The notes under the pieces: model-generated
What the model was told of the DNA's origin: nothing
Database searches by the model: none
What the model saw: the letters and a program-made list of their open reading frames with translations, nothing else
NCBI GenBank assembly: GCA_964437705.1
Contig: CAYTHX010000002.1
Location: 16,916-80,915, forward strand
Direction: 5' to 3'
Source: an uncultured Nitrososphaeria archaeon
Lineage (GTDB): Archaea > Thermoproteota > Nitrososphaeria > Geothermarchaeales > JDFR-13
Length of the DNA stretch: 64,000 bases
Translations under genes and position numbers: made by a program
Shown here: positions 3,643 to 61,442 of the stretch, one piece after another
Position numbering within the stretch: position 1 is the stretch's first letter
Layout of the letters: the number at the start of each line of letters is the position of its first letter

Positions 3643-3984
3643 ATGGTTGAAGCAAGAACAGGACCGGTGAGATTTAGTGGATATGCACTAAAGCTGAGAA
3701 GAGTATTTAACGCCGCATTTAAGGACAAATATAAGTCAGGAGAACTCGATCCTAATATAATTAATCAAGATGTATCCGAATTAAATAGGAAGATCTATGA
3801 AGTTCTTGTAGAGAAATTTGAAATTCCTAAGGAAGCTATTGTAAATATTACAGTAAACTATGATATTACGCCAGATAAACATCTAAAGATAGAAGATATC
3901 AATATTGAAATCTTTGATAAAGATGATATACTAAGTAGGAATGCGACCAAGGAGGTTAAAAACAAGTTAGGCTTAGAGACATAA
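3643..3984 (+). CDS. hypothetical protein
   Basis: 113-aa ORF in an otherwise intergenic space. No motif. Confidence 0.3.
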   Translation: MVEARTGPVRFSGYALKLRRVFNAAFKDKYKSGELDPNIINQDVSELNRKIYEVLVEKFEIPKEAIVNITVNYDITPDKHLKIEDINIEIFDKDDILSRNATKEVKNKLGLET

Positions 3985-9281: not shown

Positions 9282-10262
9282 GTGGCGACCACAATAAATA
9301 ATTATTGTATCAATATGAAAGTGGAGTTTAAAGCGTATTTAACTGGAATCTTACCTAGAGATGACTACTCAATTGACATTTTTAAGAAATTTGAATGGGG
9401 AATTATTGATGAGAAAACATATAGGGAAACTGTAAATAAGTTGGTTTGTAAGTGGGTCGATATTCAAGTTAGTAATAAACTAGATTTTATACATGATCCT
9501 CAAGTTGATTGGTTAGACTTATTCAGATTTTATTCCTTAATTGATGGCATTTCTGCTGGTCCTTTGACAAGGTATTTTGAGAATAACTACTTCTATAGAA
9601 AATTGATTATATCTGAGAAAGTTGATTATGAAGAAGGTGTGTTGAGCTTTTATACTCATCATGAGCTTTTACCCGACGATTTTCCCTGGAAAATTACATT
9701 ACCAGGGCCCTATACTATGTATAGGTTATCAGCAGTTAATTTAGACAAAGAAGAAGCTATCGATGTTATTGGGAAACTAGTCGCGGGTGCTGTGGAAGAG
9801 GCATTTAATTTAGGGTACTCATTAGTAGATTTACATGAACCTAGTCTTGCATATGATAACTACGTTGATGAGGATCTAGTTTTACAGTTATATAGATACA
9901 TAAAGAGACTTAAACTGCCGTTTCATATTCAGACGTTTTTTGGCTCTATATTTGATAAAATGCCATTAATGTTGAAGCTTAATGCTACATTTTCTATTGA
10001 TATTTTTGAAGGTGTAGATGATAGCGTAAAAATTCCTGTCGATAGAATAATTATTGGTGTTATAGATTCTAGGAATACATTGATGGAGAGGTTTCATTAT
10101 ATATCCAAATATGTCTCTCTAATAATTGATAACTCATTGGTAGATACTGTTTACCTAACTACAAATTGTGATCTCGACTTTCTACCCTATAAGTCTGCTA
10201 TTGAGAAAGTTCTATTACTAAATGAGTTTAAACGGAGGTTTACTCTGGAATGGGGAAGGTAA
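9282..10262 (+). CDS. methionine synthase MetE N-terminal-domain-like protein (split MetE, part 1)
   Basis: 326 aa of UroD/MetE-fold type with no Zn ligands. Overlaps the next ORF by 13 nt in another frame. Confidence 0.5.
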   Translation: MATTINNYCINMKVEFKAYLTGILPRDDYSIDIFKKFEWGIIDEKTYRETVNKLVCKWVDIQVSNKLDFIHDPQVDWLDLFRFYSLIDGISAGPLTRYFENNYFYRKLIISEKVDYEEGVLSFYTHHELLPDDFPWKITLPGPYTMYRLSAVNLDKEEAIDVIGKLVAGAVEEAFNLGYSLVDLHEPSLAYDNYVDEDLVLQLYRYIKRLKLPFHIQTFFGSIFDKMPLMLKLNATFSIDIFEGVDDSVKIPVDRIIIGVIDSRNTLMERFHYISKYVSLIIDNSLVDTVYLTTNCDLDFLPYKSAIEKVLLLNEFKRRFTLEWGR

Positions 10263-11317
10263 TTAGAACTCAAGAGATTGGTAGCTTAAGAAAACCACCA
10301 AAACTAATGGAAATGTGGAAATCCTATCTTAACAAAAAAATCACTTTTGATGAATTATTACCAGAAATTAGAAGAGTTTCAGTTGAGAATATTAAAAAAT
10401 TAGAGGAGATTGGTTTAACGTATGTGTATGATGGAGAGATGCATAGATGGGAGATGTATTATCACCCTGTGACTAATATCTATGGGTTTGAGTTAGTTGG
10501 TCAAGTAAGGGTTATGGAGAATAGATATTTTGTAAAGGCAGCTGTTCGAAAACCTATAAAGTTCCTTAAAAACTACTATTTAGACGAATTTCTATTTATA
10601 AAGAAAATCGCAAAAACTATCGTGAAGATTCCAGTTACAGGCCCCTATACAATTGCAGATTGGACTTTTAATGAGTACTACGTTGAAAAGTGGTTTAAAA
10701 CTTTAGATGATATGAAAATTATCAGGTTTAATGCAAAGAGAGATTTAGTATATGATTTGGCAGAGAAAGTTATCAATCCCATATTAAAAGAACTTGCCTC
10801 AAATGGTGCTGAAAGAATTCAAATAGATGAGCCGGCAGCAACTACACACCCATCGGAGATGGGGGTTTTTGTCGATGGATTTAACTTAGCTGTAGATGGG
10901 GTGGACGCGACCGTAACTGTCCATATATGCTACAGCGATTACTCAATACTTACCCCATATATACTCGAGATGAAGACAAAACATTTTGCACTAGAATTTG
11001 CAAATAGAGATTCTTGGAAACTAGGGACAAGTGATAAGGATAGGCCCGGCTATAGCTACTTAAGGGAACTATATATCGAGTATGGTTATGATGGTGAGAT
11101 TGGATTAGGTGTTATTGATGTACATACCGATGCAATTGAAAGTCCAGAATTAATTAGGGATAGAATACTATATGCTGCTAAATTTGTAGATCCAGAGAAA
11201 ATTGTTGTTAATCCTGATTGTGGCTTAAGAACTAGAAGAAGAGAAATTGCGTTTAAAAAATTGGAGAATATGGTTAAGGGTGTGGAACTAGCTGAGAAGG
11301 AACTCGGATTACTTTAA
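10250..11317 (+). CDS. metE: cobalamin-independent methionine synthase catalytic (C-terminal) domain
   Basis: IQIDEPA, HICYSD (His-x-Cys) and NPDCGL zinc-ligand motifs of MetE. Confidence 0.75.
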   Translation: MGKVIRTQEIGSLRKPPKLMEMWKSYLNKKITFDELLPEIRRVSVENIKKLEEIGLTYVYDGEMHRWEMYYHPVTNIYGFELVGQVRVMENRYFVKAAVRKPIKFLKNYYLDEFLFIKKIAKTIVKIPVTGPYTIADWTFNEYYVEKWFKTLDDMKIIRFNAKRDLVYDLAEKVINPILKELASNGAERIQIDEPAATTHPSEMGVFVDGFNLAVDGVDATVTVHICYSDYSILTPYILEMKTKHFALEFANRDSWKLGTSDKDRPGYSYLRELYIEYGYDGEIGLGVIDVHTDAIESPELIRDRILYAAKFVDPEKIVVNPDCGLRTRRREIAFKKLENMVKGVELAEKELGLL

Positions 11318-11392: not shown

Positions 11393-12898
11393 TTAGATAA
11401 ACTGTAGGAATAGTTCAGCCGCCTTTATAGCTAAGTTGTAGAATGGCTGTGGATAGAATCCATATATCAACATTATCGCGATTAACAATATAAGTGATAT
11501 TTTAATCCATATAGATTCTTTTGCGCCTTTTTCAAGCACTACTTCAGTTGGTTCTGCAAAGAATACTCTCTGTAGCAGCCATAAATAGAAGATAACGGCG
11601 AGAACACTATTTAGGACACCTAGTACTGCTAGTCCCCATAAGCCAGCTTCTATAGATGAGTATATTAAGAACCATTTACTCCAGAATCCTGGTAATGGTG
11701 GCATACCAGCTAAGCCGAGCAATGCAATAATTAACGAAGCAGCAGTTAGAGGCATAACCTTACCTAATCCCTCAATATCACTTATTCTTCTGGTTTTAAG
11801 TGTATGGATTATTGCACCTACTGCTAAGAATGCCAATCCCTTACCTAACGCGTGACTAAATGTATGTAGGATTGCAGAGGATATTCCAGATATTTGACTA
11901 CCATAGATTGCAGCTGAAATCCCAATCAGTATGAACCCTATATTTGTTATACTGCTATATGCTAGTAGACGCTTTATATCCTCTTGCAGCAAGGCTAAGA
12001 GATTAGCTACAGTCATTGTTAATGCAGCAACTACCGCCATCGAGATACCTAAGCTATATGAGAGGTTACCTGCAGCTGGAACTACAAACCTAATGATACC
12101 TAATATGCCAGCTTTAATGACAATTCCAGACAAGACTGCACTTATAGGGCTTGGTGCTGCTGGGTGGGCATCTGGAAGCCAAGTCCAGAATGGGAAAAAT
12201 GCAGCTTTGATCCCGAAGCCTATCAGCAATAGGCTTAATACAAATACTAGAAGAGTTATTGGCGCTGTTGGCAACATTTTTATAATTAAGTGAATATTTA
12301 GACTACCGGTAATTCCATACACGAATGAGATGCCGTATAGCATAATTAGCGATCCTAATCCACTCATTAGTAGATATTTAACACCAGCTTCCACTGGTTC
12401 ATCTAGGTGGTACCTAAATGCTACTAGGACGTAGCTGCTAATTGCCATTAGTTCCCATAAGACAAAGAATGTAAAGAGATCAGCAGCATATGTTAATCCA
12501 ACTAATCCTGTAGTCATTAATTGCAATAGTAGATAGTAACTTGGTAAGTGCTTATCATGCTCCATATATGATACTGAGTGTATAGCTGCTGCTAAGGATA
12601 CAATTAAGAAGATTATTGTAAAGAACAAACCCATCAAGTCTATAACTAGTCTAGAATCTATCGGGGAGCCAATAACTGCAATCTCTATGGGACCATTATT
12701 TAACACGTAATCAATATTTAAGATTGAGAGTATTAATGATATTAAGAATGATATTGCTGCCCACACTCCAAGGTACTTAACCCTATCCTTTAATATAAAA
12801 TTGATTAAGGGAGTTAGTACAATAAATATGACTAATGATATTAGTGGGTATAGTCCCCTATCAATCTGGCCTAATAATCCACATAACATGCATGTCAT
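11393..12898 (-). CDS. nuoN: NADH-quinone oxidoreductase subunit N
   Basis: 14-TM antiporter-like subunit. Last gene of the nuo operon, overlapping nuoM. Confidence 0.8.
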   Translation of the reverse strand: MTCMLCGLLGQIDRGLYPLISLVIFIVLTPLINFILKDRVKYLGVWAAISFLISLILSILNIDYVLNNGPIEIAVIGSPIDSRLVIDLMGLFFTIIFLIVSLAAAIHSVSYMEHDKHLPSYYLLLQLMTTGLVGLTYAADLFTFFVLWELMAISSYVLVAFRYHLDEPVEAGVKYLLMSGLGSLIMLYGISFVYGITGSLNIHLIIKMLPTAPITLLVFVLSLLLIGFGIKAAFFPFWTWLPDAHPAAPSPISAVLSGIVIKAGILGIIRFVVPAAGNLSYSLGISMAVVAALTMTVANLLALLQEDIKRLLAYSSITNIGFILIGISAAIYGSQISGISSAILHTFSHALGKGLAFLAVGAIIHTLKTRRISDIEGLGKVMPLTAASLIIALLGLAGMPPLPGFWSKWFLIYSSIEAGLWGLAVLGVLNSVLAVIFYLWLLQRVFFAEPTEVVLEKGAKESIWIKISLILLIAIMLIYGFYPQPFYNLAIKAAELFLQFI

Positions 12899-14370
12899 GG
12901 ATTCAACACCTCCTTAACAAACTCCAAGCCGGGAATCACATACTTTAATAGTAGTGAGGGATATATTCCTAAGATTACTGCCGTAACTGCTAATATAAAC
13001 ATGGGTATTAGCATTGGTAGTGGTGGGTCCTTGGCATCCTTTAAGGCTTCATTTAAAGGTCCAAAGAAAACTCTTCGAATGAAGTATGTCATATATGCTG
13101 CTGAAATGCCTGTTGATAAAACAGCGAATGCAAGTAGTAAGTACTTATATGGAGACACGGATTCATACCCGCCTAGAAATATCAGGAATTCGCTGATAAA
13201 GCTTGATATTCCTGGTAGTCCAGCTATACCCATAGCACCAACTACAGCTAAGCTAGCTGTTATAGGCATTTTTGTAGCTAACCCACCTAGCTTTCTCATA
13301 TCTCTGATACCAACTTGGTGAATTAGTACTCCAGCGACCATGAATAGGAGACCCTTTAGTAGGCCGTGGTTAAAGATATGGAAAATACTACCTTCTATCC
13401 CTGTTTGTGTTGCTGCAGCTACTCCAAAGAACATGTAGCCCATCTGGCTTATACTACTATACGCGAGAAGCCTCTTGACATCATTCTGTGTTAATGCCAT
13501 TAATCCGCCATATAGCATGGATATAAGTGCTAATGTCATTAAAATTGTAGTTCCAGTACATGTATTCCATTTTGAAGATGTTATTGGTAAAACTATTCTT
13601 ATCAAGGCATATAGTCCTATCTCAATCATTACTCCACTCAATATTACACTTATAGGTGTTGGTGCTTCCGCGTGTGCTTCAGGTAACCAGCCATGTAATG
13701 GGACAATAGCCATTTTTACGCCAAAACCTGCGACAAAGGCTGTTAGTAGCAGTAAAAGCTCACGTGAACCGACATATGACCTTACTAGTACCAGATCCTT
13801 AAACTCGAAACTTCCAATTAGAGATCCAACATATAGAATTCCTAGTAGAATTAATATTGAACCTAGCTGTGTATATAGGAAGTATTTATATGCTACTCTT
13901 CTTCTATCACCATATCCCCATCCAGCAATTAGTAGGTAGCTTGGAACAAGCATTAATTCCCAAAAGAAGAAGAACTGTATCAAGTTTGTGCTTGCCACTG
14001 CTCCAAGCATGCCAGCAACATAGAGCATATAATATGCATAGTATGCTTCATGTCCCTCTTCATGCTCAAGGTATGTTACTGAATATATTGCTGCTAATGC
14101 TGTTACAAATAGTATTATTAATGCTATTGCATAACTAACGCCATCTAGTAGGAAGCCTAGCGAGACCCTTATATAATCTGTTTCTATCCACTTGAAATAC
14201 TCAAATACACTATGGTTCCTTAGTAACTCGCCTCCAAGAGATAGTAGGTATAATAATGTTATCCAAATAGGTATCGATGCTACGTAGCCACCTTTGGATT
14301 TGATATACTTACTTATCACATATACTATAGGGGAGAAAAGTATTATCATAGCTATACACGCTATAAGCAT
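12895..14370 (-). CDS. nuoM: NADH-quinone oxidoreductase subunit M
   Basis: Antiporter-like subunit with conserved WLPEAHAEAPTP and SSISQMGY motifs. Confidence 0.85.
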   Translation of the reverse strand: MLIACIAMIILFSPIVYVISKYIKSKGGYVASIPIWITLLYLLSLGGELLRNHSVFEYFKWIETDYIRVSLGFLLDGVSYAIALIILFVTALAAIYSVTYLEHEEGHEAYYAYYMLYVAGMLGAVASTNLIQFFFFWELMLVPSYLLIAGWGYGDRRRVAYKYFLYTQLGSILILLGILYVGSLIGSFEFKDLVLVRSYVGSRELLLLLTAFVAGFGVKMAIVPLHGWLPEAHAEAPTPISVILSGVMIEIGLYALIRIVLPITSSKWNTCTGTTILMTLALISMLYGGLMALTQNDVKRLLAYSSISQMGYMFFGVAAATQTGIEGSIFHIFNHGLLKGLLFMVAGVLIHQVGIRDMRKLGGLATKMPITASLAVVGAMGIAGLPGISSFISEFLIFLGGYESVSPYKYLLLAFAVLSTGISAAYMTYFIRRVFFGPLNEALKDAKDPPLPMLIPMFILAVTAVILGIYPSLLLKYVIPGLEFVKEVLNP

Positions 14371-16416
14371 TTAGCCACCACCTCCTATGATTAAGGTTAA
14401 GAGTACAAGCAGCAGTAGACCTAAGATTATGTATATTATATTTACTCGTAGGTAACCAGTTTGTATAGGTCTAAATGTATTTGATAATTTTGTGTATAAT
14501 CCCTTTATTAGGTCACCAGCGCCATTGCACTCAATAAATGCGAATATCCCTTCTGCTAATAGCATTAGTCCATCTACAAATATCTTGTAGTATATTGTAT
14601 TGATATACCACCTCTCGTATAAGAATCTCCATAATTTACTTAATGTATTTGATTTTGAAACTAGCTTTTTGTAGTCTACTGTTCTTTTGATATACATACT
14701 ATATGACGGGTATAGGCCTATTATAATAATTATTGCTGTTAATGCTATGAATGGAGAGGCGAATGTATGAATAATAAATGTCCCTATATCAACTGGATGA
14801 ACATGTATTCCTAAATATTTACTCATCGGATTTAAGAAGAATTCATGGAGACCGGATAAAAGAAATCCGCCTATTAGACTTCCAAACGCAAGTATATATA
14901 GTGGTATCATCATAAATGGTCCTGGATCATGTAAGTGGTTGTGATGATGCTCAGAGTGTTGATGCTCATGCGGATACTCCCCGAAGAAGGTAAGCCCTAA
15001 AAGCCTGAAGCTGTAGAATACTGTGAGTATAGCTGTTATTGTTAATAGTATAAATAGTCCTAACCTTCCCTCAGCATATAGTGCATGTAGGATACTATCT
15101 TTGCTGAAGAAGCCGTTGAATGGTGGAACTCCGGATAGTGCTAGTAATCCTACTAGCATAACAGCATAAGTCTTTGGTAGGTATTTCTTAAGACCACCTG
15201 CATCTTTTAGTAAGTAACTGCCTATTGCGTGGCCAATTGAACCAGCGCTTAAGAATAGAAGAGCTTTAAATACTGCATGGCTATAGAGATGTGAAATTCC
15301 AGCTAGATAGCTTTCTATAAATAGGTGTTCTTCCTCCATGCATAGTCCAGCAGCACCAATAATAGATATCATATATCCAAGCTGACTTATAGTTGAGTAT
15401 GCAAGTACCTTTTTAATTTGATCTGCAACCATACCCATGGTTGCTGCTAGAAATGCCGTGAATGCGCCTATCCAAGCTACCGTTAAGAAGAATATATGTA
15501 ATGAGGGGGCTATTAATTCTCCAACATGATGGTAAGCTAAGTAAAGTATCGGAGTTACTCTCGCAACTAGGTATACTCCAGCCTTAACCATCGTTGCTGC
15601 GTGTATTAATGCGCTAACAGTTGTTGGTCCAGCCATTGCTTCTGGAAGCCATACATGAAGTGGAAACTGTGCAGATTTGCCTATTGGGCCTAAGAACATA
15701 AGTATGAGTGTTATAGCTAGTAGGCCATCCCTCGCTAAGGATACTATCCATGTAAAGTTACTTGATAACTCCATAAAGTTCAGTGTTCCTGAATATAGGT
15801 AGATTACAATTATTGAGATTAGTAGACCGACATCTCCTATTCTTGTTACAACGAATGCCTTCATTCCAGCATGAGATGGGGGATATGGTCCGATCCAGTA
15901 TTTTTTCTCATCTTTATAGTAATATCCGATTAGTGCGTAACTTGCGAAGCCTACGCCCTCCCATCCAAAGAACATAGGTAGGAAGCTATCTGCTAATACC
16001 AGTAGCTCCATGGACCCTATGAATATATTCATGAGCATCCAATACCTTGTTATTGATTCGTCTCCATGCATGTATTCAATTGAGTATACCATTATTAGAA
16101 AGCCTATCCATGCAACAATATTTGCCATAAATACACTTAATGGATCAATTAATACACCTACTGATAGACCACCCCATGGTAGTGGTAACCAATTTTCGAA
16201 TGTCCAGTCATAGGGAATTGAGTGTTTAGCTCCATTTATAATTACTACGCCGTTAAATACATCTGGAATCATAGATGCAGACAAAATTGCAGATATGAAA
16301 ACGGCACCTACAGCAATTATATCCCTCAGTTTGTGGCTAATCTTTTCGGTTATTGGATGTGTAAATGCAGCTATAAATGGGATTATCCATATTAGCCATG
16401 GAGCATACGATATCAT
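14371..16416 (-). CDS. nuoL: NADH-quinone oxidoreductase subunit L (long form)
   Basis: WLPEAMAGPTTVSALIHAATMV motif. 681 aa with a C-terminal extension. Confidence 0.85.
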   Translation of the reverse strand: MISYAPWLIWIIPFIAAFTHPITEKISHKLRDIIAVGAVFISAILSASMIPDVFNGVVIINGAKHSIPYDWTFENWLPLPWGGLSVGVLIDPLSVFMANIVAWIGFLIMVYSIEYMHGDESITRYWMLMNIFIGSMELLVLADSFLPMFFGWEGVGFASYALIGYYYKDEKKYWIGPYPPSHAGMKAFVVTRIGDVGLLISIIVIYLYSGTLNFMELSSNFTWIVSLARDGLLAITLILMFLGPIGKSAQFPLHVWLPEAMAGPTTVSALIHAATMVKAGVYLVARVTPILYLAYHHVGELIAPSLHIFFLTVAWIGAFTAFLAATMGMVADQIKKVLAYSTISQLGYMISIIGAAGLCMEEEHLFIESYLAGISHLYSHAVFKALLFLSAGSIGHAIGSYLLKDAGGLKKYLPKTYAVMLVGLLALSGVPPFNGFFSKDSILHALYAEGRLGLFILLTITAILTVFYSFRLLGLTFFGEYPHEHQHSEHHHNHLHDPGPFMMIPLYILAFGSLIGGFLLSGLHEFFLNPMSKYLGIHVHPVDIGTFIIHTFASPFIALTAIIIIIGLYPSYSMYIKRTVDYKKLVSKSNTLSKLWRFLYERWYINTIYYKIFVDGLMLLAEGIFAFIECNGAGDLIKGLYTKLSNTFRPIQTGYLRVNIIYIILGLLLLVLLTLIIGGGG

Positions 16417-16419
16417 TAC

Positions 16420-16737
16420 CTACCACCTCAACCTCCTTAAAATATCTACATCTAAACTTCGATACTTCCTATATACAACTAATGTTAATGCTAATCCGAC
16501 GCCAACCAAGGCACCATCTAATAAGATTGAAGTGATTACAATTGCATGTGGAAGTGGATCTAGAAAACCTGGAAACTTAATTAGCGACAAAGTGATAAAG
16601 TTAATATTCACTCCTGTAGCTATGATTTCTAAGCCAATTAGCATTCTTAGTAAATTCCTCTTGGCAACCATAATATATATTCCTAATATAACTAGTATGA
16701 AAGCCGTAAATATTAGTGACATTTCAGGCTTTATCAT
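16420..16737 (-). CDS. nuoK: NADH-quinone oxidoreductase subunit K
   Basis: About 100 aa, three TM helices (LIGLEIIATGVNINF). Position in the operon fits. Confidence 0.75.
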   Translation of the reverse strand: MIKPEMSLIFTAFILVILGIYIMVAKRNLLRMLIGLEIIATGVNINFITLSLIKFPGFLDPLPHAIVITSILLDGALVGVGLALTLVVYRKYRSLDVDILRRLRW

Positions 16738-17006
16738 CTTTTCCTCACCTCAACAACATAAATTAATACTCCAGCTAGAGCGGCAAACAGAACTAATGAC
16801 TGGAATATTGTATCGTAAAGTCTTTCACGCCATAAATATATAGACTCAAGCATTGATGCATTCTCAAATGATATTTTAATAGATGCAGGTGTTGATGTTG
16901 AAAGTATATTTATAGGGATGCTTGCTAAGATGTATCCCCCTATAATTAACAATACTACTACCACTACTGAACCAGCTATAGATATTTTATTCATCACTTC
17001 TACCAC
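16734..17006 (-). CDS. nuoJ: NADH-quinone oxidoreductase subunit J, C-terminal part (split or frameshifted)
   Basis: 90-aa TM protein between nuoK and the other nuoJ piece. It overlaps that piece by 20 nt in a different frame. Confidence 0.55.
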   Translation of the reverse strand: MVEVMNKISIAGSVVVVVLLIIGGYILASIPINILSTSTPASIKISFENASMLESIYLWRERLYDTIFQSLVLFAALAGVLIYVVEVRKR

Positions 17007-17235
17007 CTCTCGTCATTATAAATACCATTATAAAGAAAACCATTATTGCACCAGAAAATACAGCAAATTGTACTATTGCAACATATATAGCTCCTAACAT
17101 GTAAAATAAGATTCCAGTAATAACGGTGATTATGAATAGTGACAATACAGCATAACCTAAGTTTTTATGTTCGCATGCTATTATTGCTAGAATAATCAGT
17201 AGTATATCAATTATATATATAGCGAGATCCATCAT
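16987..17235 (-). CDS. nuoJ: NADH-quinone oxidoreductase subunit J, N-terminal part
   Basis: 82-aa TM protein directly downstream of nuoI. It gives a full-length NuoJ only when combined with 16734..17006. Confidence 0.55.
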   Translation of the reverse strand: MMDLAIYIIDILLIILAIIACEHKNLGYAVLSLFIITVITGILFYMLGAIYVAIVQFAVFSGAIMVFFIMVFIMTRGGRSDE

Positions 17236-17732
17236 GTGACTCTCCTCCTTATATATCGAATACCATATTTAGCATCTATTACAGGTTCTAATTCATATTT
17301 TAACTCGGGAAGAATCTCCTTGATATTAGGTTTAACTGATAACTTTTTAGGGTCATATATTAAGTCATCTCTCGATTCACTAGTAACTTCAACTATGGGT
17401 GTATGTACTAATGCTCTTCTTGGACAATACTCAACGCATAGTCCACAATAGCAACATCTTCCATAGTCTATTCGAGGATGGGTATATTTACTACCTTCAA
17501 CCTCAACCATTTTTATCGCATTAACAGGACATATCCATGCACATACTCCACATCCAATACATTTATCAATATAAAGAACATGCCTACCTCTAGTTCTTTC
17601 AAAACCTTTCTGTCTTTCAAATGGATACTTATGAGTCATCGGAGGCTTAATATTATGTTTTGCAACTTCTACTACAGGTACTACAATCCTACTTAAGAGA
17701 GATTTACTTTTACCCAAGCCTAACCACCCCAT
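17232..17732 (-). CDS. nuoI: NADH-quinone oxidoreductase subunit I (2x[4Fe-4S])
   Basis: CIGCGVCAWICP and CCYCGLCVEYCP. Confidence 0.85.
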   Translation of the reverse strand: MGWLGLGKSKSLLSRIVVPVVEVAKHNIKPPMTHKYPFERQKGFERTRGRHVLYIDKCIGCGVCAWICPVNAIKMVEVEGSKYTHPRIDYGRCCYCGLCVEYCPRRALVHTPIVEVTSESRDDLIYDPKKLSVKPNIKEILPELKYELEPVIDAKYGIRYIRRRVT

Positions 17733-18751
17733 AGACCTGGGAAATAATACTTAAGGAGGATCGTAATTACTAAATTGATAAATGATAGAGGAATCAATAC
17801 ACGCCATCCTAATCTAACTGCTTGATCCACTCTTAGCCTTGCATAACTGATTTTAACTGTTAGTATAACTACCATTACTATGAATAGCTTAATTAATGTC
17901 CAGAATATTCCAGAAATAGTTTCATTCCCAAATATATTAGGTCCATTATATCCTCCAAGGTATAGTACGACTAATAATAGTGACCAAGCTAACCAATTTA
18001 TGTAGTCTGCTTCCATCATTAATAGGTATAGTGGACCCGTATACTCAGTTTTGACCCCAAATACGAGCTCGACCTCTGCGACAGGGAAGTCCATAGGTAT
18101 TCTTTCTGTCATCCCAAGATAACCGATTAAGAATACAATAAAGCCTAGTATTTGGGGAATTATAAACCAGATTTTTCTCTGAGCTTCAACTATACTTACT
18201 AGATCATATGTACCAGCAAGTATTACGACTCCTAAGACTGAGAGCACTATAGGAATTTCTGCAGCTACATCCATATATATTGTTCTTAACGCACCAATAA
18301 TCGTGAACTTATTATTTGAAACCCATCCAATTAGCATTGATAGAACTGGGTATATAGTTGCTAGTGCTAGGAATAGTATTAAGCCATTTCCACCTGCATC
18401 GTAGAGAATATAATCTTTAGCATATGGTATTAGTACTACTAGTATTGCTGGAATTACTGGTAATATTATCGGTAGAAGGAAGAATAATAGTCTTAGTGAG
18501 AATCTAGGCACAATAAACTCTTTAGTTATTAGCTTAATTGCATCTGCAATTAACTGAAGCCAACCTAAAACTTTACCACAGTGAACAGGACCCATTCTAA
18601 CCATTAATCTAGCTAAGTATTTTCGCTCGAACCATACAGCGAAAATTAAAAATCCAAAGATGAATGCTAATCCTGGGAAAACTGTAATCATGAAGAGAGT
18701 TTTAAAGTTAGCTTCTACAAATTTTAATATACTCTCTATCATGTTAATCAC
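17720..18751 (-). CDS. nuoH: NADH-quinone oxidoreductase subunit H
   Basis: Multi-TM protein with the ND1 signatures MQLRxGP (here RMGPVHCG) and RLRVDQ. Confidence 0.85.
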   Translation of the reverse strand: MINMIESILKFVEANFKTLFMITVFPGLAFIFGFLIFAVWFERKYLARLMVRMGPVHCGKVLGWLQLIADAIKLITKEFIVPRFSLRLLFFLLPIILPVIPAILVVLIPYAKDYILYDAGGNGLILFLALATIYPVLSMLIGWVSNNKFTIIGALRTIYMDVAAEIPIVLSVLGVVILAGTYDLVSIVEAQRKIWFIIPQILGFIVFLIGYLGMTERIPMDFPVAEVELVFGVKTEYTGPLYLLMMEADYINWLAWSLLLVVLYLGGYNGPNIFGNETISGIFWTLIKLFIVMVVILTVKISYARLRVDQAVRLGWRVLIPLSFINLVITILLKYYFPGLWGG

Positions 18752-19875
18752 CTATCAGCATCTAAAAACCAAGGATCTAGAGAGTAAAATATTGGTGGGA
18801 TATCAGCAAATCTTATTTCCTCAATCTTTGGTAGCATTTCAATTAGGAATATATTTCTAAAACTCGGTGCACTTATTTTAACTCTATATGGCTTATCCCT
18901 ACCATCTGACACTACATAAACGCCTAATTCGCCTCTTGCACTTTCAACTCTAGCATAAACTTCACCTCTAGGTACATTTTGTGGAACAGTTTTCTTGACT
19001 GGTCCTTCAGGCATGTTATCAAGGGCTTGTTCGATGATATCTAAGCTTACATACATCTCCTTAACTCTAACAGCACCTCTCGCATAAGAATCGCAATCTT
19101 TCTCAGTTACTATCTTAAAGTCTAACTCTTCATAAGCAGCATATGGCTCATTTTTCCTAGTATCATACGCTACGCCAGAAGCTCTTAATGAGGGGCCTGC
19201 CGCTCCCCACTCAATAGCTTTATCTCTAGGAATAACACCAACTTTTCTGGTTCTAATCTCAAATAAAAAGTTATCTATCCACGCATCCATGTATGTATCT
19301 AGCCTATCTCTAAAGAATTTTATCGCCTCCTTAGCTTTCTCCCTAAATCCATGTGGTAAATCTGCTCTTACACCTCCAGGAACGATAAAGCTGTAACTCC
19401 ACCTAGCGCCGGTTAACATTTCCATAAGATCTAAGAAGGGCTCTCTATCAGCCGTTGTCCATAAGAAAACAGCTGGATTCCATGCAGTAGACTCTGCTAG
19501 GAGACCTAAAGCATATGTGTGGCTTATAATCCTATTCATCTCTAGGACTATAGTTCTAATGTATTGTGCTCTTGGTGGTGCTTCTATTCCTAATAACTCC
19601 TCGATGGCCCTGACATATGCCATAGCTACGTGGGACGTATCAAGCATTACCATTCTTTCCATTGGTATAATTCCTTGTAGCCACCTGCGGTTTTCAAGTA
19701 TCTTCTCAATACCCCTATGACTATATCCAATATCAACTTCAACATCATATACTATTTCCCCATCAGTAGTTACTACTATTGTTCCTTGGCCACTTATTGG
19801 GTGCTGCGGACCTATTCTTACCCGCATTAATCCTCCTTCTAACTCCTTAACTTCTTCAATTGTCATTATACCCAT
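18748..19875 (-). CDS. nuoD: NADH-quinone oxidoreductase subunit D (49 kDa)
   Basis: RVRIGPQHP and ERxxGH motifs with a NiFe-hydrogenase large-subunit-like fold. Confidence 0.9.
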   Translation of the reverse strand: MGIMTIEEVKELEGGLMRVRIGPQHPISGQGTIVVTTDGEIVYDVEVDIGYSHRGIEKILENRRWLQGIIPMERMVMLDTSHVAMAYVRAIEELLGIEAPPRAQYIRTIVLEMNRIISHTYALGLLAESTAWNPAVFLWTTADREPFLDLMEMLTGARWSYSFIVPGGVRADLPHGFREKAKEAIKFFRDRLDTYMDAWIDNFLFEIRTRKVGVIPRDKAIEWGAAGPSLRASGVAYDTRKNEPYAAYEELDFKIVTEKDCDSYARGAVRVKEMYVSLDIIEQALDNMPEGPVKKTVPQNVPRGEVYARVESARGELGVYVVSDGRDKPYRVKISAPSFRNIFLIEMLPKIEEIRFADIPPIFYSLDPWFLDADR

Positions 19876-19885
19876 ATTTCATCAC

Positions 19886-20362
19886 CTACTTCTCAACTGT
19901 ATAAGGCTTTAATGAGAAATCTTTTCTCAGTGGATAACCTTCTTTCTCATAATCCCAATCCTCTGGAAGTAGAAGTCTCTTTAACTTTGGATGCCCCTTA
20001 AAGTCTATGCCAAACATCTCCCACGTTTCTCTCTCAAATTTCTGTACACCCCTCCATACCTCAACTAAGCTTTGAATAGTAGGGTTCTCTCTACTTATAT
20101 CAGTCTTCAATATTAGTACTATATTTTTATCTGACGACCATATAATCCAAAAGACCTCAAATACATTATTCTTCATGTAGTCAACAGCGCCTGCAGATAT
20201 AGGCATATCAAAACCTTCGTTCTTAAGGTAATAAGCTACATCTACAATCCTATCTGGACTAACTTTAACTACTATCCTATTATCTTTAGGTATCTTAAAT
20301 TCTAATATAGCGTCCCCAAACTCACTTTTTAATTTCTCTTCTAACGAGACCAACTTTCTCAC
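19886..20362 (-). CDS. nuoC: NADH-quinone oxidoreductase subunit C (30 kDa)
   Basis: ERExWEMFGI motif. Confidence 0.8.
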   Translation of the reverse strand: MRKLVSLEEKLKSEFGDAILEFKIPKDNRIVVKVSPDRIVDVAYYLKNEGFDMPISAGAVDYMKNNVFEVFWIIWSSDKNIVLILKTDISRENPTIQSLVEVWRGVQKFERETWEMFGIDFKGHPKLKRLLLPEDWDYEKEGYPLRKDFSLKPYTVEK

Positions 20363-20840
20363 CTAAAATCTTCTTTCTAAGAGTTAATGCTCCATGTAAT
20401 ATTGCCTCAGGTTTAGGTGGACAACCAGAAATATATACATCAACTGGTAGGTAATCCTCAACTTTAACAACTGAATAGCTATCATAAAACGGTCCTTTAC
20501 TAATTGTACATACACCAATATTAACTACATATCTTGGTTCTGGCATTTGCTCATAAAGACGAATGGCACGTATCATCATTTTTCTAGTAACATTACCAAC
20601 AAAGAAAATTGCATCCGACTGCCTAGTTGAGGCCATAGGTAAGATTCCCCATCTCTCCATATCATACCTAGGCCCACATACCTGCATAAACTCTGGGCTA
20701 CAGCATCCTGTTACATAGTGTATTGGCCAAATGCTAAACGACCTACCCCAATTGAATATCTTTCTTATAGGTTTAGGTAACTTTCTATATAGCCCTTCAA
20801 ATTTTTCGAGGTATTTACTCAATTTTTCTCGCCTCCTCAA
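20322..20840 (-). CDS. nuoB: NADH-quinone oxidoreductase subunit B (20 kDa, N2 cluster)
   Basis: GCCSPEFMQ, GxCxxxxGPF and SGCPP cluster ligands. Confidence 0.9.
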   Translation of the reverse strand: MRRREKLSKYLEKFEGLYRKLPKPIRKIFNWGRSFSIWPIHYVTGCCSPEFMQVCGPRYDMERWGILPMASTRQSDAIFFVGNVTRKMMIRAIRLYEQMPEPRYVVNIGVCTISKGPFYDSYSVVKVEDYLPVDVYISGCPPKPEAILHGALTLRKKILGEKVGLVRREIKK

Positions 20841-21186
20841 GCCCTTTTACGAAGAAGTATATTCCGACAGCAATAATCACTATATAAATTATAACTGGTA
20901 GTGGATTCAGAGCTTCAATAAAAATTCCAAGACTGGCCATCAGTATCCAGCTTAGAGCATCAAGTACAAAAAATGCTACTGCATACCCGAAATATCTCAT
21001 AGCTCCTAAAATCCTAACGTCTGCAGGTCGAAAATCAATTTCTTGTCCACATTCAAAAGTGTCCTCCTTTACTTTACCTCCAATCTTACCAACAAGAATA
21101 TATGCAATAACTGGGACAACAAGCCCAGATACAAAAAATGCTACTATAAATACCCATAACCAGATATGTGAGGTAAACTCTATCAA
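20815..21186 (-). CDS. nuoA: NADH-quinone oxidoreductase subunit A
   Basis: 123-aa, 3-TM protein with ECGQEI, at the head of the membrane-arm genes. Confidence 0.7.
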   Translation of the reverse strand: MIEFTSHIWLWVFIVAFFVSGLVVPVIAYILVGKIGGKVKEDTFECGQEIDFRPADVRILGAMRYFGYAVAFFVLDALSWILMASLGIFIEALNPLPVIIYIVIIAVGIYFFVKGLEEARKIE

Positions 21187-21204
21187 GTGTATCCCCCCTA
21201 TAAC

Positions 21205-22263
21205 TTAAACTTCTTCAACTGGTTCTATCAATACGTATTTAGACTCATAAAGCTCTCTTACGATCTTTTCTGCTCTTACACTTCTAGCAATTAAGTAAGT
21301 ATTTCCGCCTATTTTACCTATACTTATATCCGCGAAATATCCATACTTATCGTCTACACTTGAAATAGCACTATGTAGTTCAGCATTTAAATCTTTAAGT
21401 AAAATATCTGTTTCTCCATTATTTAGGTAGAACTTAACTCCTTCCTCCGATGCTTCATAACTTTTTACTAGATTTATGTTAACTCCCTTCTCTTCTAAAG
21501 CTTTCCTTAAACTACTTAGTGCATAGTATTTCGTTCCAAATACTGTAAGTGTGAGGTATACTGTTTCCTCGATTCTGGTACTCCCTCCCCATCCAAGTCT
21601 CATTCTCCATATAGCCCTTATATGGGTTGGTGGAGCAAAATAACATATTTTAGGAGTATATGCAGCATGGAAGAAAGAGGCATAAAGTTCATCAGCAGCT
21701 GCGCGAAGAGCTAATCCCGTAGGTACAGTAGTTATCCAAAAACACACGCTATCTAATTCGTCTTTATTTTTAATTACGATAGGTTTCGGTATTATATGTG
21801 ATAATACCATTAACTTTTCTGTAAATCCATTTTTAAAGCCTACTGTAGCTATTGCATCAACATAGTCTTTCTCCAGTAAAAACTTCATTATTTCTTTAGC
21901 TAGGCTAATTGGACTTATATTCTCTGTAGACTTGTATATAGCTCTAAAAATACCTAATTCTCCCTTTCTATAGTTCTCACCAAATATTACTGATAGTTTA
22001 TCCTCAGATAGATTATTAAAGCCTTTAAATTCGTCATCAGTAGTCATCGGACACGCATTATAACAGTATCCGCATCTTATACATACAGCCACTAATCTAG
22101 GAGATTCATCCATCATCTGCAAAGCATTCGCTGGACATACCGCAACACACGTTCCACAACCTATACATTTACCAGCACGTAAAACATCTTTTAATAAATT
22201 CGCAAAGATTGGCCTTGGAGTTATTGGTCCATACTGAGTAGGCCATAGTGCTCTTTTACTCAA
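21205..22263 (-). CDS. FpoF/FrhB-like protein (2x[4Fe-4S] ferredoxin domain fused to an F420 hydrogenase/dehydrogenase beta-subunit-like domain), first gene of the nuo cluster
   Basis: N-terminal CIGCGTCVAVCP and CIRCGYCYNACP. The remaining ~280 aa match the FrhB-type N-domain pattern (GIFRAIY...ATVGF). The size (352 aa) and domain order are those of FpoF. Confidence 0.5.
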   Translation of the reverse strand: MSKRALWPTQYGPITPRPIFANLLKDVLRAGKCIGCGTCVAVCPANALQMMDESPRLVAVCIRCGYCYNACPMTTDDEFKGFNNLSEDKLSVIFGENYRKGELGIFRAIYKSTENISPISLAKEIMKFLLEKDYVDAIATVGFKNGFTEKLMVLSHIIPKPIVIKNKDELDSVCFWITTVPTGLALRAAADELYASFFHAAYTPKICYFAPPTHIRAIWRMRLGWGGSTRIEETVYLTLTVFGTKYYALSSLRKALEEKGVNINLVKSYEASEEGVKFYLNNGETDILLKDLNAELHSAISSVDDKYGYFADISIGKIGGNTYLIARSVRAEKIVRELYESKYVLIEPVEEV

Positions 22264-22412
22264 TACTCTACACCATCCTGCACTCTATAGTACTATATTA
22301 TATAGATTAATAGCAAAGCGATTTATTTTTGTTATATGTATAGATTTATACAGTAATTTTTTGTTTAAGATTATTATTTTCTATTTATACCTATTACAAA
22401 TATTACAAAATA

Positions 22413-59940: not shown

Positions 59941-60027
59941 ATATTTTATGGATGAGTCTGCCTAACCTCTGCTGGGCGTGGCGAGGAAATCGCGTAGTCA
60001 CGCTCAGTATGTTAGGTAGATGATTTT

Positions 60028-60223
60028 GCCCCTCATGTTGATCAGGTGGTCACGTGAGGGGAACTCACCCAGCCCCTCATAATCAGGTGGTTATGAGAGG
60101 TTTGGGTGGGGGGTTGGTTGGGGGATATAGCCCTTTGGGATGAAGCCTACATCAATCAGGCGGTTGATGTAGGTAGACTCACCCTACGCCCCTACAATCA
60201 GGTGGTTGCAGAGGCGTAGGGCG
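60028..60223 (+). repeat. four tandem imperfect hairpin repeats sharing the loop AATCAGG(T/C)GGTT
   Basis: Hairpins at 60028-60061, 60073-60100, 60146-60173 (perfect 10-bp stem CCTACATCAA/TTGATGTAGG) and 60187-60223. The linkers ACTCACCC (60063, 60177) and GGGTGGGG (60104) could pair with each other. Confidence 0.6.
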
Positions 60224-60375
60224 GGAGTCAACATACAGAGTACAAGGAGCAGAGTGTTAAAGTACAGAGTGTAGGAGTATGTGTCCCCCTCTCCAGACTA
60301 GATTTTGGGGGTAAAACCCCACCCTCCCAAAACTACGAGGGAGTGGGAGGGTAATTTCGGTCTGAGGGGAGAGGT

Positions 60376-60954
60376 ATGAGAAAAGCTCGAACAATTGAGG
60401 AATATCAGAAAGCACTAGAACTCCTCTATAAGTATAAATATAGTATACGGAAAGTGGCAAGAGAATTAAATATCCCGAGAACAACAATTCAACGTTGGCT
60501 CAAAGGTTCCAAACCAATACTATCATGGACACCAAAGCCAACACCAGAATTAGCATATGTAATTGGTGTATTGATGGGAGATGGACATTTACATCTACGT
60601 AAGAAAAACCACTATAGTATTGAACTAGAAGTTAAAGATTTAGCGTTTGCCTGTGAATTTAGTAGAACATTAGCAAAAGTACTCAATAAGCCATTTAGAA
60701 AACCATATTGGAGAAAAGATAGACATAGATGGACAGTATACTACTACTCGAAAGCATTCTACATATGGTTTAAGGAGCAAACCCTGAAAACATTAAAGAA
60801 GTATATAGAGCACGATAAAGAAACTGTTGGAGCATTCCTAAGAGGAATCTATGACTCAGAAGGAAGTAACTGGAGATGCAAAAGGATATCGGTATACAAT
60901 ACTAGTTTAATGCTTCTAAGGTATATCCAGTACCTATTAAATAAGGTATTTTAA
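60376..60954 (+). CDS. HTH + LAGLIDADG homing-endonuclease-like protein (I-DmoI-like), apparently truncated by a frameshift
   Basis: N-terminal HTH (RKVARELNIPRTTIQRWLKG), a first LAGLIDADG motif (LAYVIGVLMGDGHL) and a second (FLRGIYDSEGS). Confidence 0.65.
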   Translation: MRKARTIEEYQKALELLYKYKYSIRKVARELNIPRTTIQRWLKGSKPILSWTPKPTPELAYVIGVLMGDGHLHLRKKNHYSIELEVKDLAFACEFSRTLAKVLNKPFRKPYWRKDRHRWTVYYYSKAFYIWFKEQTLKTLKKYIEHDKETVGAFLRGIYDSEGSNWRCKRISVYNTSLMLLRYIQYLLNKVF

Positions 60955-61156
60955 TATTATTGCAAGAGGCCCATATGTGACAACTAGAGCAGGACAAAAA
61001 CGTATATGGAAAAACACGGTGTTTACAACGAGAAAAAACTGCTATACAATAGTAATCCGCAGAGGATTCTTCGTATACAAATTCCTAAAGGAAATAGGAT
61101 TCAGTATACCAAGAAAACAGCTAGGACTAAAGAAAATTAGAGACCTCTTGGGATAA
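60941..61156 (+). pseudogene. displaced C-terminal segment of the LAGLIDADG gene in the +1 frame
   Basis: In the other frame the reading continues IRYFNIIARGPYVTT...YTIVIRRGFFVYKFLKEIGFSIPRKQLGLKKIRDLLG to the TAA at 61154-61156. The segment is collinear with the I-DmoI C-terminal subdomain. Confidence 0.45.
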
Positions 61157-61207
61157 CCCCCCACCAACCCCCTTTTTCTCACACAGAAACAAAAAAATTT
61201 TTAACCC

Positions 61208-61224
61208 CCCCATATATAAGTAAT
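61208..61224 (+). promoter_or_regulatory. tRNA promoter TATA box
   Basis: catatataagtaat is centred about 25 nt upstream of the tRNA 5' end. Confidence 0.4.
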
Positions 61225-61236
61225 ATATACGGGTAG

Positions 61237-61337
61237 AGCCGGGTCGTCTAGCGGCCAAGGATCCCAGGCTCTGGATCGCCCCGTAAGGGGCTAGGGGAGC
61301 CCTGGGGACCCAGGTTCGAATCCTGGCCCGGCTACCA
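61237..61337 (+). tRNA. tRNA-Gln (anticodon CUG) with a ~25-nt intron after position 37 and encoded CCA
   Basis: Hand-folded cloverleaf. Acceptor AGCCGGG/CCCGGCU (A1-U72), discriminator A, CCA at 61335-61337. D-arm GUCU/GGAU. Anticodon stem CCAGG/CCUGG with loop CUCUGG and CTG at 61271-61273. Intron about 61275-61299, containing a CCCC-GUAA-GGGG hairpin. T-arm CCAGG-UUCGAAU-CCUGG. Confidence 0.75.
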
Positions 61338-61442
61338 ATCACTTCTCTTTATTTGAATGGAAGGATATAATACCTATTTGCTCAGGTAAGCTATTTTTAA
61401 AATAATTCCTTAAGGTAAATGATAGCTTATTATTTGGTTATA

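Follow-up and report, generated by a model that had tools for sequence, protein, structure and literature searches.

How electrons are delivered to the 11-subunit form of complex I that lacks NuoEFG, the form present in most archaea and many bacteria, has been a question for decades. In a systematic search (PMC3144371), no protein emerged as a designated partner, and FpoF was confined to Euryarchaeota. The stretch of DNA analysed here, 64,000 nt in length and hereafter called the window, bears directly on this question, as it holds an operon of this type headed by a gene for an FpoF/FqoF-like protein of 352 aa (21205..22263, (-) strand). The locus asks whether this protein is an electron-input subunit and, if so, whether it still performs F420 chemistry.

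The gene and its nuo operon

The genes nuoA, B, C, D, H, I, J, K, L, M and N occupy 21186 to 11393 on the (-) strand, where neighbouring genes overlap or abut. Pfam profiles identified nuoA (20815..21186; PF00507), nuoB (20322..20840; PF01058), nuoC (19886..20362; PF00329), nuoD (18748..19875; PF00346), nuoH (17720..18751; PF00146), nuoI (17232..17732; Fer4 families) and nuoK (16420..16737; PF00420), and NCBIfam profiles (TIGR01974, TIGR01972 and TIGR01770) identified nuoL (14371..16416), nuoM (12895..14370) and nuoN (11393..12898). The remaining gene, nuoJ (16734..17235), is split into two ORFs (16987..17235 and 16734..17006), only the first of which is matched by PF00499; the same split occurs in all relatives. 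No NuoE, NuoF or NuoG was found in the operon or among the 58 window ORFs scanned.

The cluster chain encoded downstream of the FpoF-like gene is intact. NuoB has the N2 ligands (the tandem C46-C47, C111 and C140), and NuoI has the eight canonical cysteines of its two [4Fe-4S] clusters. NuoD is of the complex-I type and lacks NiFe motifs. With all subunits in one cluster, the N2 and N6a/b ligands in place and no NiFe site, the operon encodes an 11-subunit complex-I-like Nuo enzyme. The best PDB match of NuoD is Thermus Nqo4 (261 bits), yet NuoD lacks equivalents of the quinone-headgroup ligands His38 and Tyr87 of Nqo4 (the window protein and those of all relatives read PQHPIS-GQG and ERMVMLDT), so that the acceptor side of the enzyme is atypical. 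Neither a ferredoxin gene nor a gene for a 2-oxoacid:ferredoxin oxidoreductase (OFOR) lies within the window, and neither the window nor six related loci yielded any rRNA or other Rfam genes. Elsewhere in the window, a ThermoDBP-related gene hints at Thermoproteota, and the thermosome shows about the same distance to the chaperonins of Thermococcus, Acidianus and Sulfolobus, a comparison that indicates only that the organism is not close to Sulfolobales.

The FpoF-like gene begins with a TTG codon at 22263 and ends with a TAA codon at 21205-21207. The start codon is validated by the conserved N-terminus MSxRxLWPxxYGxI, which is common to all relatives. A Shine-Dalgarno-like sequence, GGATGGTG (22271..22278, (-)), lies 7 nt upstream of the start, and each of the seven distinct loci has a GGTG or GGAGG motif in this position. 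Further upstream, inside a 149-nt divergent intergenic region, a TATA-like box, CTATATAATATA (22294..22305, (-)), ends 30 nt before the start codon. Most relatives' loci have a similar AT-rich TATA-like element at a comparable distance (clear in L085, L088 and L089), and the sequence and coordinates of the box suggest that it may act as the promoter.

At its other end, the gene is separated from nuoA by an 18-nt spacer, GTTATAGGGGGGATACAC (21187..21204, (-)), which contains a Shine-Dalgarno-like G-run and no T-run terminator. The junction in relatives is a 4-nt ATGA overlap (L084, L085, L086 and L088), 0 nt (L089) or 38 nt (L082), with a Shine-Dalgarno motif within the last codons and no T-runs. 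The gene adjoins nuoA, immediately upstream of it, at L001, L082-L090, L095 and L122, and is apparently a conserved first cistron that is co-transcribed with the nuo genes. This arrangement also bears on whether its product belongs to complex I at all. A soluble ferredoxin-like carrier or regulator could merely share the nuo transcript; the fpoF gene of Methanosarcina lies outside the fpo operon and its product is partly soluble, and a soluble role has been proposed for the FqoF of Archaeoglobus fulgidus. However, the adjacency to nuoA is strict across two clades and down to 34% identity, the overlaps are of the kind seen in translational coupling, and no copy of the gene was found in any context other than upstream of nuoA. 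A role outside complex I is accordingly rated as highly improbable.

A ferredoxin domain joined to a degenerate FrhB fold

The protein starts with a family-specific N-terminal extension (residues 1-18, MSKRALWPTQYGPITPRP; 22210..22263, (-)), which is conserved in all members and absent from the canonical relatives, whose start corresponds to the helix that follows it. The extension is a probable docking peptide, and residues 1-20 are of low confidence (pLDDT 50-68) in an AF2 model built from 56 sequences. This model replaced a poor first one made from 8 sequences (pLDDT 66.5), in which the ferredoxin domain was unmodelled. The 2x[4Fe-4S] ferredoxin domain (residues 31-75; 22039..22173, (-)) gives multiple Fer4 Pfam matches and contains two CxxCxxCxxxCP motifs, whose eight cysteines (C33, C36, C39, C43, C61, C64, C67 and C71) are invariant both in the nuo-linked family and in the canonical relatives. 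The remainder is a degenerate FrhB-fold domain (residues 85-352; 21208..22011, (-)), with the three-dimensional fold of FrhB across the whole domain and without its cluster, FAD and F420 motifs. The length of 352 aa fits the NCBIfam FpoF models, which have 337 and 341 positions. A preliminary description of this DNA had reported 11 nuo genes on one strand without NuoEFG, preceded by a 352-aa first cistron with two ferredoxin motifs, an FrhB-like domain and the size and domain order of FpoF, and all of this is confirmed.

In these respects the protein resembles FqoF of A. fulgidus and FpoF of Methanosarcina (NF040616, PRK09326), which have about 340-350 aa, a 2x[4Fe-4S] domain followed by an FrhB fold, and an 11-subunit complex-I core without NuoEFG as their partner. 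In A. fulgidus, fqoF is located inside the fqo operon and is counted among its 12 fqo genes. The likeness weakens at the level of profiles. The C-terminal domain PF04432 is matched at 45.2 bits, above the gathering score of 23.3, but the family as a whole reaches only 43-51 bits, against 133-158 bits for canonical relatives. The N-terminal domain PF04422 scores 63-86 bits in canonical relatives, whereas it gave no match in the window protein at E<=0.01 or in P0016 and P0017 at E<=0.001, and none is recorded for P0001-P0008. The preliminary description had proposed a check with both Pfam profiles, and only the C-terminal one gave a match. The window protein reaches 34 bits with NF006807, for which the cut-off is 269; NF040616 (cut-off 475) and PRK09326 (cut-off 444) are not among the best 25 of its 62 matching families, and P0017 matches no NCBIfam family at E<=1e-15. 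Canonical relatives themselves reach 165-191 bits with the NCBIfam FpoF/FrhB models.

The cofactor sites were compared in a MAFFT alignment of 12 family members with 30 canonical proteins, the FrhB numbering being anchored through P0020, the closest canonical relative, aligned to 3zfs_C, and through Mills et al. 2013. The four ligands of the FrhB-type [4Fe-4S] cluster, C104, C134, C192 and C195, are replaced by T213, G243, I300 and V303. These cysteines are invariant in the canonical relatives, while all 12 family members lack all four, and no alternative ligand set is conserved among them. In independent HMMER alignments to 7np8 and 8rja, the CX2C of Fsr and FwdI is matched by the I and V. 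The FAD helix cap Q24DGG..T30 is deleted or replaced (Q-D deleted, G-G changed to I119-S120 and T30 to K123), and the FAD loop K75-Y76 has become W176-I177, with W-I or another hydrophobic residue across the family. These FAD contacts are assigned from Mills et al. 2013 and from invariance among canonical relatives. The basic F420 turn 163-IGKGK is replaced by 271-ASEEG, every member having an acidic or neutral turn here, and the F420-pocket loop S209-V210 by K317-I318. The nearest canonical relatives retain the FrhB cluster ligands, the FAD motifs and the F420 turn. One motif beside the FrhB F420/FAD pocket is retained in the family, D305...A311-D312-I313-S314-x-G316...R327, in which all 56 sequences compared share D312, G316 and R327, so some ligand might still bind there.

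The losses also set the protein apart from structurally solved relatives. The N-terminal half of Fsr (7np8) and the FrhB of Frh (4omf/3zfs) have the FrhB-type cluster motif, PCX40CX54CX2C (Fsr paper), the FAD loop and IGKGK intact, all of which are absent from the window protein. ACDS zeta (8riu) and FwdI (8rja) of Ca. Ethanoperedens thermophilum, which are 21-22% identical to the window protein, are F420-reducing subunits with FAD and a third [4Fe-4S] cluster; the window protein lacks those sites, and the two are partnered with a CODH or Fwd enzyme rather than with complex I.

These observations bear most heavily on the possibility of a working FpoF/FqoF, in which F420H2 or another hydride donor would reduce a flavin and electrons would pass through the clusters to NuoI, as in an Fqo-type F420H2:quinone oxidoreductase. 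Such a function would suit the size, domain order and fold of FpoF-type modules, the operon location shared with fqoF of the 12-gene A. fulgidus set, the ADISxG...R segment retained by the F420 site, and the location of the gene for P0020 near a nuo cluster. However, the FrhB-cluster ligands, the FAD motifs and the basic F420 turn have been lost, and the PF04422 and NCBIfam results also speak against it. In Fsr, electrons from FAD reach the ferredoxin-domain clusters via the FrhB-type cluster 1 (Fsr paper); without cluster 1, these clusters would probably be beyond electron-transfer reach of a flavin bound at the canonical site. We consider a working F420H2 dehydrogenase very unlikely, and the F420H2-oxidising function suggested in the preliminary description is not upheld. 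Its wider proposal of an input subunit for F420H2, ferredoxin or another donor loses F420H2 with the cofactor motifs and stands for ferredoxin or another donor: because a protein of FpoF size and domain order is the conserved first cistron of a nuo operon lacking NuoEFG, it is a concrete candidate for a peripheral electron-input subunit.

Distribution and selection

The family is rare and comes entirely from uncultured thermophiles: 1.84 billion representatives include about four of its clusters at 50% identity. Carriers include the MAG GCA_027078545.1 (contig JALWXN010000004.1) and the 1.68-Mb contig Ga0209426_1000002. Only three of the 56 stretches retrieved by a metagenome pattern scan were true family members. 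FqoF and FpoF occur in Halobacteriota, whereas the window family belongs to uncultured thermophiles probably of the Thermoproteota type. No homologs were found outside metagenome-derived sequences, and the family is thus absent from cultured Sulfolobales, so the extension to crenarchaeal complex I, and to Sulfolobales in particular, that the preliminary description had envisaged has to be abandoned. A possible precedent, the 'fpoF homologs' of Ca. Martarchaeaceae described in a 2025 report, was rejected: Table S8 of that report places them by 2-oxoacid:ferredoxin oxidoreductase genes rather than nuoA and also lists them as NuoI.

All copies of the gene are intact, and the protein is under purifying selection along its whole length, the degenerate domain included. 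The FrhB-like part has a pN of 0.32 versus a pS of 0.69, and dN/dS in the degenerate domain is about 0.2, a value from the one pair that is usable because dS is saturated in most pairs. Between L089 and L090, the only differences are 8 synonymous changes. The ferredoxin domain has a mean pairwise identity of 66%, and the ferredoxin domain plus helix 66-81%, against 40-43% in the body, and the best-conserved parts of the protein are the ferredoxin domain and the family-specific N-terminal peptide. The gene is also the fastest-evolving of the operon (56% identity versus 59-89% for the Nuo subunits and 93% for the thermosome), which also fits a relic of diminishing importance.

As a structural or assembly relic, the protein would bind or chaperone the peripheral arm with its clusters off the electron path, and the donor would react directly with NuoI. 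Direct reaction with NuoI has been proposed for the FpoF-less Fpo and for other 11-subunit enzymes, the catalytic sites of the protein are lost, and most archaea with 11-subunit complexes manage without such a protein (PMC3144371). However, a structural role has no obvious need for two intact clusters, and the eight ferredoxin cysteines are invariant in a domain that is among the best conserved. Together with the purifying selection along the whole length, this makes a relic unlikely.

A candidate ferredoxin-type input module

The reading that we favour, and to which we give about as much credence as doubt, is that an FpoF/FqoF-derived pseudo-enzyme serves as a twelfth, peripheral Nuo subunit for ferredoxin-type electron entry and not as an F420H2 dehydrogenase. 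Since the two wire clusters are kept while the residues for flavin, F420 and its own cluster are lost, the protein is probably an electron-entry adaptor, with ferredoxin as its likeliest donor. The ferredoxin domain and the N-terminal peptide would dock on the NuoI side of the peripheral arm, much as the ferredoxin domain anchors the module to its partner in the solved ACDS-zeta and FwdI complexes (PMC11493965). Once docked, the ferredoxin domain would lengthen the N6a/N6b-N2 chain by two clusters on its outer side, and the cofactor-less FrhB-fold body would be a scaffold or docking platform. It would follow from such an arrangement that F420H2 does not supply a hydride; instead, electrons enter singly from a ferredoxin-type donor, either reduced ferredoxin or, directly, a ferredoxin-dependent enzyme such as 2-oxoacid:ferredoxin oxidoreductase. 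The resulting enzyme would be a ferredoxin:quinone oxidoreductase, in which electron flow could be either input or pmf-driven output to ferredoxin.

Cyanobacterial NDH-1 (NdhS/V/O), the FpoF-less Fpo of Methanothrix and the fqo/oor of T. tenax offer functional analogies only. The cores of NDH-1 and of Methanothrix Fpo lack NuoEFG and are thought to accept single ferredoxin electrons at the NuoI end, sometimes via accessory subunits. The same is thought of the NuoEFG-less core of T. tenax, whose fqo/oor genes illustrate that crenarchaeal complex-I gene clusters can include alternative input genes. NdhS/V/O and the Oor proteins have no homology to the window protein; the putative adaptor here is a degenerate F420 dehydrogenase.

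Judged from its gene and protein sequences, a lineage of uncultured thermophiles has a conserved, translationally coupled twelfth gene that derives from FpoF/FqoF and has apparently lost F420 chemistry. The reach of this finding is limited by the rarity of the family, and the complex I of Sulfolobales or other cultured Thermoproteota is not explained by it. It does provide a concrete protein for the question of ferredoxin-dependent input, and a natural case in which an oxidoreductase subunit has persisted as a putative pseudo-enzyme adaptor. It is also a warning for annotation pipelines, because a PF04432 match or an 'FrhB/FpoF' label on genes of this kind would probably mispredict F420-dependent respiration. 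More tentatively, the former F420H2 dehydrogenase subunit, now a cofactor-less docking platform with a two-cluster domain, may have become a new dedicated input module that recruits soluble ferredoxin, or an entire ferredoxin-dependent enzyme such as OFOR, to the NuoI end. If so, archaeal 11-subunit complex I would gain its first defined partner protein beyond the F420-dependent Fpo/Fqo enzymes, and the module would record an Fqo-like, F420-dependent ancestry of the respiratory chain of this lineage.

Gene, operon and distribution

The gene at 21205..22263 (-) is an intact ORF encoding 352 amino acids from a TTG start. This start is credible because the N-terminus, MSKRALWPTQYGPI..., is kept in every aligned relative and, in P0007, the one relative with a later called start, is also encoded upstream of that start. 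The protein carries two CxxCxxCxxxCP motifs (C33/36/39/43 and C61/64/67/71), matched by many Fer4 families in Pfam. The preliminary description had named both FrhB domains as a check: PF04432 (FrhB_FdhB_C) matches residues 205-351 (E=1.1e-11, 45 bits), and PF04422 (FrhB_FdhB_N) has no match in the protein. Downstream, the nuo genes extend along the same strand as far as 11393 in the order nuoA, B, C, D, H, I, J (in two ORFs), K, L, M and N, their junctions overlapping or abutting. A scan of 58 window ORFs turned up no gene for NuoE/F/G, ferredoxin or OFOR and none related to F420. Except for the absent PF04422 match, ORF, Pfam and gene order thus agree with the original account of a Fer4 plus FrhB-like protein directly upstream of nuoA in a nuo operon without NuoEFG.

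Other features of the operon and its flank deserve mention. The nuoJ split at 16734..17235 (-), into ORFs of 82 and 90 aa of which PF00499 matches the first only, recurs in all related loci. NuoD (18748..19875 (-)) is of the complex-I type with Thermus Nqo4 as best PDB match. In the window and at L082, L084, L085, L086, L089 and L095 it lacks counterparts of two residues that ligate the quinone headgroup, His38 (PQHPIS-GQG vs PQHPSTHGV) and Tyr87 (ERMVMLDT vs PRMDYLHS), and on these residues the acceptor site of the lineage may be atypical. Directly downstream of nuoN, on the opposite strand, lie two consecutive overlapping ORFs of 326 and 355 aa (9282..11317 (+)), the second of which is annotated in relatives as Meth_synt_2 (similar to cobalamin-independent methionine synthase); together they resemble a MetE divided over two genes.

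The exact window protein is present on public metagenome contigs. A word-indexed search of 5.8 billion proteins gave a close family of eight 90%-identity clusters (42-100% identity). When 1.84 billion representatives clustered at 50% identity were searched exhaustively with a profile, only P0001 and P0006 from this family, the sister pair P0016/P0017 (~1e-96) and two fragments were recovered; beyond them, canonical Fer4 plus FrhB proteins form a broad continuum from ~1e-43. No homologs of the family turned up outside metagenome-derived sequences. The preliminary description had suggested checking synteny in other Sulfolobales; with the family seen in metagenome-derived sequences only, the finding does not account for electron input into Sulfolobales complex I.

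In every locus recovered, the gene immediately precedes nuoA and the complete nuo set comes after it (core loci L001 and L082-L087, sister-clade loci L088-L090 and L095, and L122 on a 1.68-Mb contig). The divergent upstream neighbours, encoding an SFM1-like methyltransferase, a HAD phosphatase, TatA and the thermosome, are also conserved. Sample labels suggest that the sister-clade members come from marine hydrothermal sources. The window has a GC content of ~34% and ordinary archaeal housekeeping genes, and its thermosome is about equidistant from Thermococcus, Acidianus and Sulfolobus chaperonins. Among the few taxonomically suggestive genes, one for a ThermoDBP-related protein (3643..3984 (+), PF10015, E=1.6e-27) hints at Thermoproteota. 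The local GC maximum (0.388 at 60001-62000) contains a 192-aa ORF (60376..60954 (+)) whose product combines an HTH domain with a LAGLIDADG_3 homing-endonuclease-like domain.

Co-transcription with nuoA and translational coupling are well supported by the sequence, given the junctions, the upstream elements and the conserved locus order. At seven distinct loci, the gene and nuoA share a 4-nt ATGA overlap (four loci), abut at 0 nt (one) or are separated by spacers of 18 and 38 nt (two). An SD-like GGGGG/GGAGG stands within the last codons or the spacer before nuoA in all seven, and none has a T-run of at least five there. A TATA-like box lies upstream of the gene in most loci (22294-22305 in the window), and a GGTG/GGAGG-type motif precedes the start in all (22271-22278). 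The conserved C-terminal 'LRGLY' tail of P0003-P0008 is missing in the window protein (21205..21240 (-)) and its closest relative, P0002, and is replaced by LYGG or LYE in P0016-P0019. The tail codons in those other genes hold the nuoA SD motif and overlap the nuoA start; the SD role falls in the window to a separate 18-nt spacer, which contains GGGGGG.

Fold and cofactor sites

An AlphaFold2 model built from a 56-sequence alignment (pLDDT 92.1, pTM 0.91) was closest in fold comparison to the F420-reductase zeta subunit of ACDS (8riu; score 31.4, 301 residues aligned), followed by FwdI (8rja; 27.7), Fsr (7np8; 26.2), HCAR (5dqr; 20.5) and FrhB (9r51_B; 19.6). With an earlier, poorer model, the top 21 Foldseek hits were all FrhB-family proteins. 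The protein truly belongs to the 'ferredoxin domain + FrhB fold' class, along with FpoF and FqoF.

The profiles tell a different story for the cofactors. On PF04432 the nuo-linked family, P0016/P0017 among its members, reaches 43-51 bits, and on PF04422 it has no score; for the next, canonical relatives the figures are 133-158 and 63-86 bits. These canonical relatives reach 258-295 bits on the NCBIfam FrhB subfamily model (cut-off 269), where the window protein reaches 34 bits, and 165-191 bits on the FpoF models; P0017 has no NCBIfam match at E<=1e-15.

Cofactor positions were read from an alignment of 12 family members and 30 canonical proteins, with M. marburgensis FrhB numbering anchored by aligning P0020, the closest canonical relative, with 3zfs_C. 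The cysteines C104, C134, C192 and C195, precisely the residues that Mills et al. 2013 give as [4Fe-4S] ligands of FrhB, are T213, G243, I300 and V303 in the window protein. They correspond to the Fsr cluster 1 motif PCX40CX54CX2C, and separate HMMER alignments to Fsr and FwdI again place I/V opposite CX2C. None of the 12 family members keeps any of the four, nor do they share an alternative ligand set at these positions. Further, in the FAD pyrophosphate helix cap (Q24-D25-G26-G27..T30) Q-D is deleted, leaving I119-S120..K123; the FAD loop K75-Y76 is W176-I177; the F420 phosphate turn 163-IGKGK is 271-ASEEG, acidic or neutral in all family members; and the F420 loop S209-V210 is K317-I318. 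Retained are D305...A311-D312-I313-S314-x-G316 and R327 (FrhB D197, A203-D204-V205-S206, G208 and R222). Of these, D312, G316 and R327 are invariant in all 56 aligned proteins and could have a structural role.

In Fsr and Frh, the FrhB cluster relays electrons from FAD to the clusters of the ferredoxin domain. Because the flavin site and the FrhB cluster are both gone, it is very unlikely, judging from these residues, that the window protein oxidises F420H2 by hydride transfer and converts it to single electrons. The evidence here parts from the F420H2-oxidising input that led the preliminary description. A still functional F420H2 or flavin input would fit the shared fold and the retained residues, and is improbable in view of the lost sites.

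Selection and a possible adaptor role

Purifying selection maintains the protein. All 11 gene copies examined are intact. For the FrhB-like part, the window and L082 give pN 0.32 and pS 0.69 (dN/dS ~0.2, with dS near saturation), and the eight differences between L089 and L090 are synonymous only. Between the window and L082 this is the fastest-evolving operon member, at 56% identity against 59-89% for the Nuo subunits; the thermosome is at 93%. Within the protein, conservation is 66% in the ferredoxin domain, 81% in the preceding helix and 40-43% in the FrhB-like body. An N-terminal peptide of ~18 residues, conserved in the family and absent from canonical relatives, is modelled with low confidence, as is typical of a segment that would become ordered only on a partner.

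The gene stands as a real candidate for an input or adaptor subunit, as its operon, architecture and clusters indicate; the preliminary proposal is thus supported in part, F420H2 oxidation being very unlikely. The composite reading that we favour, at about even confidence, is a complex-I adaptor subunit that has lost F420 chemistry and serves a ferredoxin-type one-electron donor. Architecture, two retained clusters, catalytic-site loss, operon membership and purifying selection are its observed part. In ACDS-zeta and FwdI, the ferredoxin domain at the N-terminus both fastens the module to its partner and connects the two electrically (PMC11493965). By analogy, that of the window protein might dock on the peripheral arm at its NuoI end. 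As the N6a/b and N2 ligands are intact in the arm (NuoI, NuoB), the docked domain would extend the electron chain by two clusters, with the FrhB-like body as a putative scaffold or docking surface.

Ferredoxin and ferredoxin-dependent oxidoreductases are the usual low-potential electron source in thermophilic archaea. The donor would be a one-electron carrier, most plausibly reduced ferredoxin or a ferredoxin-dependent oxidoreductase, which would make the enzyme a ferredoxin:quinone oxidoreductase. A relic with a structural or assembly role, off the electron path, would suit the fast evolution of the gene and sits poorly with the two retained clusters; it seems rather unlikely. A carrier that is co-transcribed with nuo and unattached to the complex is improbable.

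Relation to known systems

By function the nearest relatives are FqoF and FpoF; by structure they are 8riu zeta and 8rja FwdI. fqoF is one of 12 fqo genes in the published Archaeoglobus fulgidus set. A 2011 survey placed FpoF-containing complex I in Euryarchaeota, not Crenarchaeota, and found no partner protein for the 11-subunit enzymes (PMC3144371); in T. tenax, according to its genome paper, an Fqo-like gene set has no fqoF and contains embedded oor genes. The 'fpoF homologs' reported in 2025 for Ca. Martarchaeaceae (PMC12542729) were considered as a precedent and rejected: the Table S8 accessions adjoin OFOR alpha/beta and are also listed as NuoI, and hence represent a different gene. The F420H2-dependent respiration inferred there may rest on a small ferredoxin-type protein. 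P0020, with all cofactor motifs intact, is encoded in a cluster at L091 5453..9023 (GCA_037917675.1, JAVCBW010000036.1) together with a NuoB/NuoI-like fusion of 165 aa, a NuoCD fusion of 532 aa and an ORF of 112 aa; a divergent nuoABCDH set lies ~5 kb away. This cluster may specify a separate F420-linked complex resembling a Q-module, of a soluble or alternative kind.

In the literature searched, no nuo-linked FrhB-fold protein devoid of cofactors was described. The window protein belongs to the FrhB superfamily at the level of fold; its descent is from the FpoF/FqoF type, whose defining cofactor features it does not have. Although its narrow distribution limits the reach of the finding, it offers a testable pseudo-enzyme case that bears on the long-standing question of complex I input.
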